Of a DNA stretch of 64,000 nt, positions 23,433 through 55,307 are shown piece by piece. A model generated the notes under the pieces. That model was given only the letters and a program-made list of their open reading frames with translations. It was not told where the DNA came from and searched no databases. The stretch is from Eledone cirrhosa (Eukaryota), in NCBI GenBank assembly GCA_964016885.1, contig OZ024745.1, positions 14,570,001 to 14,634,000 on the forward strand, given 5' to 3'. The number at the start of each line of letters is the position of its first letter. Within the stretch, counting starts at the first letter, position 1. The translations under genes were made by a program, and so were the position numbers.

Positions 23433-23498
23433 TATTTTGTCTGATGAAGGCATAGCATATTGTTAATATGATATCCCCGAAATATATATAATGAAATA
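23433..23498 (+). ncRNA. Minimal type I hammerhead ribozyme in the PLE pLTR
   Basis: Stem I tattttgt/atgaaata, CUGAUGA 23441-23447, long stem II, GAAA 23479-23482, palindromic tatata in place of stem III, then UA. The inverted copy at about 20082-20147 has UUGAUGA. Confidence 0.75.
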
Positions 23499-24902
23499 GA
23501 TATGGTTTTATAAATATAGTTTTCCATTTATTTAATATTGTATATATATATATATATATATATATATATATATATATATATATATATATATATATATATA
23601 TATATAATAGTTTAGGTAAATAACTCAAATAAACGAATGATGTGAGAGTGGATATGTACATTTATGTGTGTATCTGTTTTTTGATTGTGTTTACGTCTAA
23701 CATCACTTCAAAACCGGTGTGCTGTTTTTTTTTTATATCTCTTAACAATTCGAAAATAATAAGTAATGGATTCGATATGATAGAATATCCCAGAATGGCC
23801 GATGTCCAATGACTGAAACCAGTAAAAGAGTAAAAGAATAACCTCTAGTTTTACACTATGAATATGTTTGCTGCTCTCACAATATAGTTGATTCACGATT
23901 TATCCTTTGCTGGCTTTAATGTATGAAACGCTTTCAATGCTTTAAGCTGTATATAATAAGTTGAGAATTTCATTCATAAAACGATGTGGCATTTGTGTAA
24001 TATTGGTATCTATGGTAATATCACATTCCTGGTTTATACCTGGAATAGAAATGCGAAAATGAAGATGAATAATTCTTGGCTATAAAGCTAGATCATAGAT
24101 TTCGGTGATCCGGAATGTTATAAACAACCCAACTGAAACTGATAGCTTTTGCTTTATAATGGACTTTTCCGATATATATGACTGGAATATTAGAGTATTT
24201 TACATATGTTGCTTTGAATATTGAAAATATTGCATCATTAAATTAGTATTCTATGAACAACAATTTTCGTTCCAGTAAACATAGATTAATAATGCCAAGA
24301 ATTATAGAATAGAAGTGTAGCGTCCACATGTCTAAAACGTTATTCTCGATGCCTGAAATATATATTTCTTTTGCAGTCAATTGATAAGATGTCTAAATGA
24401 ATTTCATCTTTTTGTAGGAATATAGACTAAAGTATAAAATACAATTACATTTATGTTTCAATATTCCATTACATTATTCTTCTGAAGAAAGGAAAAATAT
24501 ATTTATAATGATGTTTTAAAATAATATTATTGCACCAAAATCTAGACGTATGCTGGAAGTGTTTCGGAATTAAATGTTGGCATATATCTTTACAAATTAA
24601 AAGAGAAAACAATCATTTTTCTGGCACTAAATTCGATACTGTAAATATCTAAACTGACTCCACAACAACAAAAAGAACAGAGTTAAATTACTCTAGTATA
24701 GGATATTCATGACTGAAATAGTGTTGTATAAATAAACCCTTTAGTGTGTATTAAATATAAATGTTTTCGTGCCTATTACAATTATAATGTTTCATCTGTT
24801 AATTTCAATGCACTATTACACTAAATGTTTAAAAATAATACCCAGTCTAATCTGTAAACGACTGCATCTTATAAACATTCATTTGAATTATGTTATGTAA
24901 GA

Positions 24903-25062
24903 GGGCGGAATAATTGGCGGAGTTGTTAGAACCTTGGATAGAATGATTTGCAGTATTCGTTCCGGCTTTCTTCTCTCCGAGTTAAAATCCTGCATGGGTC
25001 AGCTTTGCTTTTCATACATTCGAAATCGATAAAAAAATAGCAGTCTAATACTGGGGTCAATT
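24903..25062 (+). mobile_element. Diverged tRNA-derived SINE
   Basis: ttggcggagttgttag ... gagttaaaatcc ... ctttgcttttcat ... tcgataaaa ... tactggggtc. Confidence 0.7.
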
Positions 25063-25257
25063 CTTCCTCTATATCTCTTTCTCACTTACATTCTCATATT
25101 TTCTATACTTCTCTGGAAGAAATTGTGTCGTGGATGGATTCCAATAGTTTGAGATGTGTTCGAGTACATGCGGCGAGGAGATGGAAATGAAGTGATCAGT
25201 TATTATTGACCCTTTGTAAGTAGGATGATGGTAAAGGAGTAATTTTTCTGGACTAAT

Positions 25258-25620
25258 GATGATGGCCGAATGGTCAAAGAGTTCACTTTGCAATCATAAG
25301 GATCATAGTTCAATCCCACTGCATAGTTTCATCCCCTGGTTCGATACCACAGCATGGCATCTTGGGCCGATATTTACCCCAGACTCGGGTCAACCTAATA
25401 CTTGTGAATGACAATGGCCAAAAGAAACTGTTTGGAGTTTTGTTGAATAGATTGTAGTTATAAACCACACTCCCAGCATTGTCACACACTCTGTCTTGTC
25501 GAATATTCCTAAGTATTATGTACAGATTACACGAGCCTGTGAAATATTCATTGTACGTCACTTTCAGAATCAGACAGCCCTGTGAATCGGACAGTTGTAG
25601 CATGCATCGTCAAAACCGAT
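25258..25620 (+). mobile_element. tRNA-derived SINE, second family
   Basis: A box TGGCCGAATGG and B box GTTCAATCCC/GGTTCGATACC. A related reverse-strand copy lies at about 33090-33340. Confidence 0.6.
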
Positions 25621-53115: not shown

Positions 53116-54256
53116 GTAGGATGTGAGTTTTATTGTAGTACAATAAAGCAATGCAGTTATCGGATAAGTAGCACTCTACAGTTTGTAGGACTGGAGTATA
53201 AATAATATATAAGATCAAAAGATGGTTAAAAGAGTTCCATGTATTTTATTATACGCAATTCAAAAACAAATATCATCATGCAATAACATTTGCGTTTTCA
53301 TCAGATAAAATAGGGAGACATGATATGAAGGTTAAAACACACTTGTGAATAGTGCAGTTTTAAATCAACATATGAAAAGTAGTTTTAGATTGATGTGTGA
53401 TATTGGGAAAAAAATTGAGATAGGAGGAGAGATGGGTGATAGAGAGAGAGAGATAGCTTTTATAACTGAGAAAAATATATTGTTTTACATAGAGAGGTTG
53501 AAAAACCGTTGGAAGATAATATATAATTTAAAAGAATTTGAAAATTAACAAAGAGAAAAATTTTAGAATAATGTTAAATTAAGGTTTGTATATTTAAGGG
53601 TTTAATAATATGTGCGATGAAAAGAAATTGTTAATATGTATTAAGAATAATATTTAAGGGTTTAATAATATGTGCGATGGAAAGAAATTGTTGATATGTA
53701 TTATTAAAAAATAATAAAAATATACCAATAATAATGTAAGTAAGGATATATTGTGAAAGAAGTAGAAGAGAGGATGAATAAGTATAATATGTATAAGTTA
53801 GATGAGCATGAAAGGGAGAAAAAATAATGAATAATTCATTATTTGTTCTCCCTTTCATGCTCATCTAACTTATACATATTACACTTATTCATCCTCTCTT
53901 CTACTTCTTTCACAATATATCCTTAATTACATTACTATTTCTCCTACATCTCTCCTCCTATCTCATCCTTCCTCATTATACTCCTCCCTTTCCACTTTTT
54001 ACTCTCATCTCCTCCTCTTTTTCATCCCCCCCCCCCCTCAATTTTTTTCCCAATATCACACATCAATCTAAAACTACTTTTCATATGTTGATTTAAAACT
54101 GCACTATTCACAAGTGTGTTTTAACCTTCATATCATGTCTCCCTATTTTATCTGACGAAAACGCAAATGTTATTGCATGATGATATTTGTTTTTGAAATG
54201 CGCATAATAAAATACATGGAACTCTTTTAACCATCTTTTGATCTTATATATTATTA
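53116..54256. mobile_element. Large fold-back PLE pLTR insertion in (TA)n
   Basis: Outer arms 53200-53420 and 54037-54256, inner palindrome 53728-53937 centred near 53832, tail 53116-53200. Confidence 0.88.
54144..54214 (+). ncRNA. Minimal type I hammerhead ribozyme
   Basis: Identical to 45606-45676. The reverse copy at 53242-53312 has CUGAUGA but a mutated GAAU box. Confidence 0.8.
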
Positions 54257-54654
54257 TATATATATATATATATATATATATTGTTATACTATATATATTG
54301 TTATACATATTTATATATTGCTCTCACAGTCTGTAGACAAGGCAACACTCCTTCTACGAGCGGTTTTCAAGTCTAATTTTCAACTTGATATTCTCTCTTC
54401 CCTATCTGCTACGATAAGTATGGGCTCTACGTAACCCTGTTATTGTAATTCTGTCGAAGTTAACTGAAGAGACCATCCTGTCTTGCATCATAATTGCATG
54501 ATGGAGCTGGGCCATTGAAATACATATAGTGATTTCACGGCATTAAAATCTACAACATATCTTCCAGTTGTCGCTTTAAATATATTTGCTTAGAATAAAT
54601 GAATCTTGAATATTAGGAGTGCCGGCATTTGTATCATTCTGTATCACTGAGTAT

Positions 54655-54840
54655 TTTTCTATAAAAATAGTTTTTGTAAAGAATTCCAATTCTTTAAATC
54701 CATCAACCAATGACCTCCACCCATCCCAATCCAACAGAAAATGTATAAATACCACCTTATCACATTGACAGTTGGCTTTCCTGATGATTTCCTTCGAATG
54801 AAACAGTTCTAGTCCTGTAGAAGCCACTTCTATATTAAAT
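54655..54840 (+). mobile_element. Solo pLTR related to 46332-46548, with an intact hammerhead at 54773-54826
   Basis: ccaatgacctccacccatccca, tataaatacca, then tggctttc-CUGAUGA-tttccttcgaat-GAAA-cagttctagtcctg-UA-gaagcca. Confidence 0.8.
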
Positions 54841-54940
54841 ACACACACACACACGCATATATATATATATATATATATATATATATATATATATATATAT
54901 ATATATATATATATATATATATATATATATATATATATAT

Positions 54941-55307
54941 AAGAAAAAGGGATGAAATCGAAAATGCAACTGAAGTCTTATTTTTTTAAAAAATATATAT
55001 ATTTATTTGGTTCCTTTACCGGTTTCGCAGTTCTTCTGCTTTTCAAAAGGTGAGTTGAGATGGAGGGTCTGTGGTTTTTCTCACATATATATATATTGTG
55101 AGAAAAACCACAGACCCTCCATCTCAACTCACCTTTTGAAAAGCAGAAGAACTGCGAAACCGGTAAAGGAACCAAATAAATATATATATTTAAAAAAAAA
55201 ATAAGACTTCAGTTGCATTTTCGATTTCATCCCTTTTTCTTTATACTTCCACTCGTGTAGGACACCTCGGTTATTTTTCATTTTGTAAAAAAAACCTCAC
55301 TTTCTAA
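54941..55307. mobile_element. ~300-bp near-perfect palindrome plus tail in (TA)n, with a variant hammerhead on each arm
   Basis: Arms 54941-55085 and 55097-55241 around a (TA)n loop. cctt-UUGAAAA-gcag aagaa ctgc-GAAA-ccgg-UA-aagg at 55132-55169 (+) and 55013-55050 (-). Confidence 0.85.

Follow-up and report, generated by a model that had tools for sequence, protein, structure and literature searches.

Hammerhead motifs and a hairpin box in the 3' ends of Hydra-clade Penelope-like elements of Eledone cirrhosa

We found that the hammerhead motifs in a 64,000-nt window of the Eledone cirrhosa genome (GCA_964016885.1, contig OZ024745.1, 14,570,001-14,634,000, forward strand; coordinates below are those of the window) very probably belong to Hydra-clade Penelope-like elements (PLEs), lying in the pLTRs, or 3' ends, of several families that insert into (TA)n; most copies are heavily 5'-truncated stumps placed head-to-head. 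What is new here is a bulged hairpin in these ends, which we call the tail box; the hammerheads are ordinary. Published cases already cover the U3-A8 core, the U·U base of stem II and the palindromic form of stem III. The overall reading, in which Hydra 3' ends carry hammerheads and are primed at two sites set by a pair of boxes, is probably correct.

Hammerheads and the elements that carry them

A descriptor scan of the window identified eight complete type I folds, at 23433-23498(+), 45606-45676(+), 54144-54214(+), 45988-46038(-), 46482-46532(+), 54773-54826(+), 55132-55169(+) and 55013-55050(-). All have the CUGANGA/GAAA/UH core or a compensated U3-A8 version of it, together with stems I-III, and end in stem I. 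With a ninth match at 38689(-), which looks like a chance hit, the window gave nine matches; block-wise dinucleotide shuffling, repeated 100 times, averaged 0.23 and never produced more than 2. When stem I was set to at least 6 bp, five window matches remained against 0.03 in shuffles. As some of the eight are copies of each other, they represent about five independent sequence types. A CUGAUGA at 41093 with a neat stem II was rejected for want of GAAA, UH and stem I. No hammerhead appeared among the 150 window matches listed by Rfam at E up to 10, and the 8 of 91 related loci that were searched with a threshold of E 1 gave none either, suggesting that the Rfam models miss PLE hammerheads of this kind.

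An earlier note on this DNA had named nine hammerhead stretches, and all are present where it placed them; its predicted cuts after 23490, 45668, 46526, 54206, 54819 and 55165 match the scan exactly. Its PLE interpretation held for type I topology and palindromic stem III, a design described as dimer-cleaving, and the identity is supported by an ORF remnant behind one copy; these are 3' stumps of the Hydra clade, however, and not free-standing ribozyme families. Its figure of about six distinct families has to be revised, since the motif at 54144 repeats that at 45606 letter for letter, a single insertion supplies both 45988(-) and 46482(+) as its arms, and 54773 belongs to a subfamily of this pair. 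The 55132 copy, listed as variant or partial, is complete with a U3-A8 core, while those at 29704 and 30875 (both +) are indeed partial: the inversion junction cuts both, so that the 5' strand of stem I is missing, and 30875 additionally lacks the CUGANGA box and stem II. The palindrome atcgat is confined to one arm of the 29704 element, the inverted one, and is absent from the copy named. 'Minimal' proved a loose term, stem II being 31-36 nt long in 23433 and 45606, and the stem-III insert 14-17 nt in families B, D and E. Absent from the note were three mutated partner copies, at 20082-20147(-), 45389-45459(-) and 53242-53312(-), and a family-D copy at 1658-1708.

The insertion A1 (19951-23540), bounded by (TA)n on both sides, consists of an inverted tailed arm (19951-20382, -) and a 5'-truncated long arm (20378-23540, +). 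The long arm carries a 5'-truncated RT and thumb with YRDD (20378-21229, +), where a frameshift in a C run ends the ORF piece, and then a CxCX5C linker and C-terminal GIY-YIG-type endonuclease (21192-21857, +) without CCHH but with CxxC before E and CxH after N. The A1 hammerhead at 23433(+) has an intact core, an extra nucleotide after A9, a long stem II and a 6-nt palindrome as stem-III insert. Its inverted copy (20082-20147) is mutated (C3U, unpaired by G8), and the tail box of the same arm lies at 20011-20032(-), scoring 20.3 bits with our covariance model. RT followed by endonuclease was seen in A1 only; the other window families are without an ORF. The ORF motifs of A1 are the Hydra features of Craig et al. 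2021 (PMC8557442, as far as accessible) and thus assign it to this clade; comparison of A1 with published Hydra reference proteins was by eye. The N-terminal motifs RWK and DKT have been lost in the window by 5' truncation, and RMRWK and ADKT are present in the consensus of 38 relatives. Pfam gave no family for the two PLE ORF pieces. Other RT matches among the 31 window ORFs were to RVT_1 or zf-RVT and were set aside as unrelated LINE-type remnants.

Of 65 related loci that could be tested, 49 have a hammerhead of the same design behind the ORF. Its stem-II base is U·U in 21 of 44 distinct motifs, as it also is in File S2 of Craig et al. 2021, and the core is U3-A8 in 3 of 44. The accessible parts of that paper describe, for Hydra-clade EN+ PLEs, the same ORF motifs, (TA)n targeting, inverted 5'-truncated copy and optional tail, and a hammerhead near the 3' end whose stem II has U·U at its base and whose stem III is a short palindrome. 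Searches for a family-B pattern in metagenome contigs gave no matches, and viral contigs contained no relatives.

The remaining window insertions are mostly palindromic. A2a (45357-45799, both strands) has a mutated hammerhead at 45389(-), the intact one at 45606(+) and a tail box at 45721-45747(+). A2b (53119-54245, both strands) has a palindrome at its centre (53727-53939), a mutated hammerhead at 53242(-), the intact one at 54144(+) and a tail box at 53171-53197(-). Both arms of B1 (45903-46547) carry a hammerhead, that at 45988(-) being intact with a cut after 45994 and that at 46482(+) having a single stem-III mismatch; the tail box is at 45946-45966(-). B2 (54773-54826, +), which represents a B1 subfamily and departs from B1 in stem I and loop II, is a single arm with a short end. 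C (54942-55306, both strands) contains the two U3-A8 hammerheads at 55013(-) and 55132(+) and a tail (55245-55306) that begins with a degenerate box, chosen by eye. In D (29645-29859, both strands) the junction falls within the core; the partial hammerhead (29704-29749, +) has a U·U stem-II base and a 15-nt stem-III insert, the loose box is at 29776-29823 and the tail is about 84 nt long by eye. The decayed family-D copy at 1658(+) keeps the 5' strand of stem I and has core U4 changed. E (30755-30917, both strands) is joined at GAAA, leaving half a hammerhead (30875-30903, +) and its mirror, with a tail box at 30801-30826(-; 21.9 bits). Finally, F (28762-28863, -) is a tail-only piece with a weak box (28837-28863, 9 bits) and (TA)n at its end; no hammerhead was found upstream of this box, which counts against the twin-box reading.

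The tail box and the ends of insertions

The tail box is a bulged hairpin of the form RCTC-[stem-loop]-NN-GAGYRC, about 20-30 nt long, and is kept across the Hydra clade in many animals. In relatives, the junction region that follows the hammerhead holds the box shortly before the next ORF: two copies, 55-83 nt apart, in 17 of 33 loci and at least one in 26 of 33. Controls taken inside the ORF gave 0 of 30, and antisense controls 2 of 33. Box 2 itself is absent from the window. The strict pattern had 7 matches in the window, where shuffles gave 0.7 and never more than 3; the loose pattern was not enriched (10 against 7.45). A covariance model containing no window sequence ranked the tails of E, B1, A1, A2a and A2b as the top five of eight matches; two of the eight were unrelated, and it missed the C and D boxes, which had been chosen by eye or with the loose pattern. 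A strict hairpin box stood behind the hammerhead in only 18 of 49 loci, a figure that is low partly because short ends have no box by definition and 11 loci have less than 120 nt of flank.

Inner pairs 1-3 were paired in 81/92, 61/85 and 48/63 boxes, exceeding permutation maxima of 70, 48 and 35, although the inner part varies from 5 to more than 20 nt. In 26 selected boxes 99.4% of cells were paired and 28 were changed on both sides (0/500 shuffles), figures biased by the choice of boxes with 9-12-nt inner parts. The outer four pairs are invariant and hence give no covariation. Three pairs had a double change, a number equalled by 452/500 shuffles, and the ratio of G·U to A·C (3:0) is too small to tell RNA folding from cDNA folding. 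No published description of the box was found in searches of the accessible literature and supplements. Two copies are visible by eye before the ATG of the Hydra-1_Ajap consensus of Craig et al. 2021, and one each at the 3' ends of Hydra-2_Amil and Hydra-2_Ajap; the accessible text of that paper does not mention a twin box.

All seven two-armed window insertions lie in (TA)n and have an inverted 5'-truncated copy and a one-sided tail. In each, one arm stops 2-5 nt short of the box and its partner has a tail of 62-84 nt, compared with 30-40 in the Hydra clade of PMC8557442. The short-arm end tracks the box in 7/7 although the distance from cut to box ranges from 26 to 80 nt. Among relatives, eight of nine informative ends fell 0-4 nt before box 1 (six) or box 2 (two), the exception, L039, fitting neither. 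Three of four same-family pairs were mixed; one inverted pair (L086) had two short arms. Copy numbers were taken from sequencing reads, in which family B showed both end classes; in one run 418 loose ends of one class and 548 of the other led into (TA)n. The sequence before the box is TA-like, which blurs the exact ends and makes annealing or cutting at a target-like site possible. Strand-switch joints accumulate in reads at 46017-46035, where subfamily differences in loop II and stem I also stop alignments.

Proposed priming at two boxes

The 3.2-kb arm of A1 is tailless while its 430-bp arm carries the tail, and each arm of A2b has sequence missing from the other, so that neither arm is a plain copy of its partner. 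Two box-set RT starts, one per strand, would explain both the one-sided tail and the inverted arms. We somewhat favour a mechanism, drawn from sequence comparison, in which the RT-endonuclease binds both boxes and starts two cDNAs, one per target strand. The template would be uncut RNA, tandem or circular, and the bound enzyme would nick both strands of the (TA)n target. One cDNA would begin immediately 5' of box 1 and the other immediately 5' of box 2; they would extend toward each other and be joined by microhomology wherever they stalled. The product would have inverted arms, only one of which would carry the tail, made up of box 1 and the spacer. More tentatively, the twin hairpins could be docking sites for a dimeric RT-endonuclease, each fixing one RT start on one strand, in which case tail, inverted pLTR and full-length start at box 1 would all come from one cis-element on uncut tandem or hammerhead-circularised RNA.

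A precedent is PAc, a Poseidon-clade PLE of Anolis (PMC11167929, seen in part), where two RT start sites likewise bound the tail, both target strands are extended, a stem-loop lies near the start sites and a hammerhead upstream. In PAc the starts are inside one AC-rich stem-loop within the ORF. Here there are two bulged hairpins, conserved in sequence and placed in the 5' UTR, and ends lie immediately 5' of each.

A less likely account, though one to be taken seriously, has the GIY-YIG endonuclease recognising the box in DNA or cDNA. The inverted arm would then arise by fold-back self-priming, perhaps on an antisense template, and the short end by a nick or resolution at the TA-like stretch before the box. 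Arkhipova 2013 explains junction palindromes by self-priming on antisense template, the accessible text of Craig et al. 2021 attributes the tail to EN-mediated resolution, and EN recognition required the D. virilis tail (cited in PMC11167929). The junctions of D and E do lie in short natural palindromes, and tandem 76-78-bp units are joined at the short-end site, as if inserting into their own pre-box site. However, an inner box that varies so widely in length and covaries as a stem is unneeded for a duplex-DNA site, and fold-back on the first cDNA cannot give the A1 short-arm tail or the private A2b arm sequences. The latter argument concerns fold-back on the first cDNA, not on an antisense or already inverted template.

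The hammerhead and the biology of the elements

Stem-III inserts measure 14-17 nt in B, D and E and 6-8 nt in 49 relatives, and in this length the three families differ from the Hydra clade of PMC8557442 (accessible parts). Predicted stem III was unstable in the monomer for A1 (+4.7 kcal/mol), A2 (+4.7) and C (+6.0) and favourable in the duplex (-3.2, -10.5 and -8.3, respectively). For B (-1.4 kcal/mol) and E (-7.1) the monomer itself was predicted to be stable, making dependence on a dimer doubtful. The stumps being head-to-head, no window copy has an adjoining same-strand partner for a cis dimer; same-strand tandem 76-78-bp units occur only elsewhere in the genome (reads). To judge from their sequence, the truncated hammerheads of D and E could not cleave alone. 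Most likely the hammerhead would cut tandem transcripts down to single units, working as a dimer in A1, A2 and C; in B and E it may do so as a monomer. Metazoan PLE minimal hammerheads (Cervera and de la Pena 2014, PMC4209133, accessible parts; see also Lunse et al. 2017, via the review PMC6765202) share the type I fold, extra nucleotide after position 9, palindromic stem III, U3-A8 variant and opposite-strand pairs 100-700 bp apart. The window copies differ from them in a longer stem III, a stem II of up to 31-36 nt in A1 and A2 and the predicted monomer stem III of B and E.

It is improbable, in our view, that the folds are kept for a non-cutting role such as protein binding or are dead relics in E. 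cirrhosa. In favour of this reading, four partner copies have mutations in the core or in stem III, and in vitro cleavage of minimal PLE hammerheads is weak. For PAc, cleavage required protein, insertion in vitro did not depend on it, and RNA-seq gave no ends at the hammerhead cut (PMC11167929, accessible parts). Against this, core and pairing are preserved between B1 and B2 despite their different stem I and loop II, among the 40 read variants listed out of 203, the ones within the motif affect loop II and stem I and none the core, and the compensated U3-A8 swap is present in both arms of C.

Still less probable is that the short units are non-autonomous non-LTR retrozymes, which would propagate through small circular RNAs and use the machinery of PLEs in trans. 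Retrozymes share the type I hammerhead, short non-coding units and a PLE link (PMC7229834; bioRxiv 10.64898/2026.07.22.740005; both seen in part) and have been proposed as PLE derivatives. Read depth over hammerhead and tail was about 5-10x that further upstream in one run, and head-to-tail 76-78-bp joints were found in two. The depth drop may partly reflect subfamily divergence, however, and described monomers are about 220-400 nt. Retrozymes form head-to-tail arrays, whereas the window has no array with a hammerhead per unit, the reads showing only the 76-78-bp joints, and its copies are inverted stumps whose junction differs from insertion to insertion. Chance matches in AT-rich repetitive DNA can practically be dismissed: despite the lack of hammerheads among the listed Rfam matches and the probable chance hit at 38689, the excess over shuffles and the fixed position behind PLE ORFs argue strongly against them.

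Accessible parts of published PLE papers state the origin of the inverted repeats and one-sided tails to be unresolved. PLEs are the closest retroelement relatives of telomerase, and a clade-conserved 20-30-nt hairpin at both insertion ends offers a defined experimental handle on how they insert. The tail box would also serve as a simple marker for Hydra ends such as those missed here by Rfam and Pfam.

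Hammerheads and their Hydra-clade host element

The window is animal-type DNA (36% G+C, many microsatellites), and self-comparison placed the named motifs inside short inverted repeats bounded by (TA)n tracts. We searched it with a descriptor for the type I hammerhead fold and found eight complete motifs: A1 (23433, +), A2a (45606, +), A2b (54144, +), B1 (45988, -, and 46482, +), B2 (54773, +) and C (55132, +, and 55013, -). All six cut positions predicted in the earlier note agreed with the descriptor folds. The descriptor matched nine sites in the window, compared with a mean of 0.23 over 100 shuffles; the ninth match is probably due to chance. 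Two motifs that had been called variant or partial, at 29704 (D) and 30875 (E), were indeed partial plus-strand hammerheads, interrupted by their own inversion junctions; D is a real family, because a decayed copy at 1658 retains the stem I strand missing from 29704. Three further partner copies were all mutated, and an Rfam search of the window had no hammerhead among the matches listed. At 41086-41130, CUGAUGA, a 3-bp UUCG hairpin and UGAAG form a Hydra-like half core lacking stems I and III.

Upstream of the A1 hammerhead lies a 5'-truncated, frameshifted ORF with RT and GIY-YIG parts (20378-21857), itself preceded by an inverted copy of the A1 3' end. Its endonuclease part has the CxCX5C linker and the CxxC and CxH motifs and lacks CCHH, the features that define the Hydra clade of Penelope-like elements (PLEs) in PMC8557442. 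The sole longer match to this part, protein P0003, served as a route to 2224 relatives. From the 120 of these that were listed, 38 were aligned; the alignment contained RMRWK and ADKT and was used to retrieve 91 loci. A hammerhead was found about 90-520 nt behind the ORF in 49 of the 65 loci with sufficient flank. Hydra PLE loci L079-L091 lie in 13 contigs whose records bear the titles of bacterial genomes, most likely through animal host contamination.

Among 44 distinct motifs from related loci, 21 had U·U at the base of stem II, three had U3-A8 and 42 had a near-palindromic stem-III insert. The U·U design occurs in File S2 of Craig (PMC8557442), and PMC4209133 describes U3-A8, the extra nucleotide and opposite-strand hammerhead pairs; the ribozyme anatomy is therefore already known. 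The insert measured 6-8 nt in 49/49 related loci but reached 14 nt in B, 15 nt in D and 17 nt in E. No monomer fold of stem III was predicted for A1, A2 and C, while one was predicted for B and E.

Different Hydra families are stacked in single (TA)n sites in L086 (346-5505), L058, L067 and L087, and comparably in the window at 45256-46710 and 52548-55383. A further palindromic insert between (TA)n tracts (52608-52810) has an extension of about 38 nt on one arm, with a related end near 55383-55476; neither hammerhead nor box was found in it, and it is probably the stump of another PLE clade. Self-comparison also gave a SINE-like family of about 190 bp with at least eight copies at 70-93% identity (44-233, 889-1090, 3674-3888, 4527-4724, 18392-18583, 32029-32224, 33476-33677, 40223-40383) and a second dispersed family, one end abutting (TA)n, that adjoins insertions A2a and E (10683-10965, 16670-17173, 30611-30754, 39135-39347, 44884-45303). 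Remnants of LINE type, which match RVT_1 and zf-RVT, occupy 11253-12784, 13729-16714, 35142-38661 and 59181-61227, and minisatellite arrays occupy 6651-8314 (44 bp), 56207-56801 (45 bp) and 56902-58849 (32 bp).

A hairpin box at the insertion ends

In all seven two-armed window insertions, one arm carried a tail of 62-84 nt that was absent from the other. The tails begin with a bulged hairpin, RCTC-[hairpin]-NN-GAGYRC; seven instances of this strict pattern were counted in the window, compared with 0.7 in shuffles, while a loose pattern was not enriched there. The consensus in relatives was GCTC-[hairpin]-UY-GAGCAC. Of 33 related loci, 17 had two boxes upstream of the ORF, 9 had one and 7 had none, compared with 0/30 in ORF-internal and 2/33 in antisense controls. 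Box 1 and box 2 were spaced by 55-83 nt, in agreement with the window tail lengths.

Covariation was assessed on 92 distinct inner parts selected by sequence only, a set that includes some chance matches within ORFs. Inner pairs 1-3 scored above all 2000 permutations; pairs 4 and 5 did not in this set. In 26 chosen boxes from relatives, 99.4% of cells were paired and the outer four pairs were invariant, the outermost being G-C in relatives and mostly A-U in the window. A model built from these 26 ranked window tails as its top five matches and F seventh, and did not detect the C and D boxes. F carries a box, and its end lies in (TA)n; no hammerhead was seen with it.

The short arms stopped 2-5 nt before the box in 7/7 insertions, with 26-80 nt between ribozyme cut and box. 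For 3' ends in relatives we left out (TA)n-only matches, matches reaching a reference or contig end and short cross-family hammerhead matches. Nine ends remained: six lay 0-3 nt before box 1, two 1-4 nt before box 2 and one fitted neither. Three of four same-family inverted pairs in related loci were tail/short and one was short/short.

The twin box had no Rfam family in the 8 of 91 related loci searched, and no description of it was found in the papers and supplements searched; subscription papers and some figure supplements could contain one. The box can nevertheless be seen in Hydra consensus sequences already published with PMC8557442.

Proposed role of the boxes

Beyond the observed architecture, covariation and end positions, we propose that the boxes on the RNA would dock protein and would set two cDNA starts, one for each nicked target strand; the converging cDNAs would then become joined through microhomology. 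In PAc, a Poseidon-clade PLE of Anolis, both strands are extended and two starts bound the tail (PMC11167929). The published reading of junction palindromes, an antisense or already inverted template (Arkhipova 2013), is compatible with the layout of both A1 and A2b. A simple fold-back copy of the first cDNA does not fit these insertions, since A1 has its tail on the short arm and its ORF on the tailless arm, and each arm of A2b carries private sequence. Because the hammerhead cut separates the body from the boxes, the proposed two-start route requires a template that either was never cut or has been re-ligated. Copies starting at box 1 (L090 and L013, at +1 and -11) agree with a circle or with a start site there. 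G·U exceeded A·C by 20 to 4 in hammerhead stem II and by 3 to 0 in the box, a count too low to decide between folding of the RNA and of the cDNA strand.

Tandem units of family B

Reads were aligned to one B1 arm, which was matched by 11,010 contigs of run X1, 8,872 reads of X23, 157 contigs of X5 and none of X21. Depth peaked across the hammerhead and tail. Among 40 listed of 203 variant rows, every in-motif variant lay either in loop II or in stem I, and the sole variant within the box fell in its loop. This gives partial support for conservation of the family-B core, because alignment bias favours conserved copies. Joints stepping back 76-78 bases marked same-strand tandem units, which could pair in cis. 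Head-to-tail joints of this 76-78-bp hammerhead unit (window 45974-46052) were seen in two runs; if the arrays are long, they would represent a very small retrozyme-like unit.
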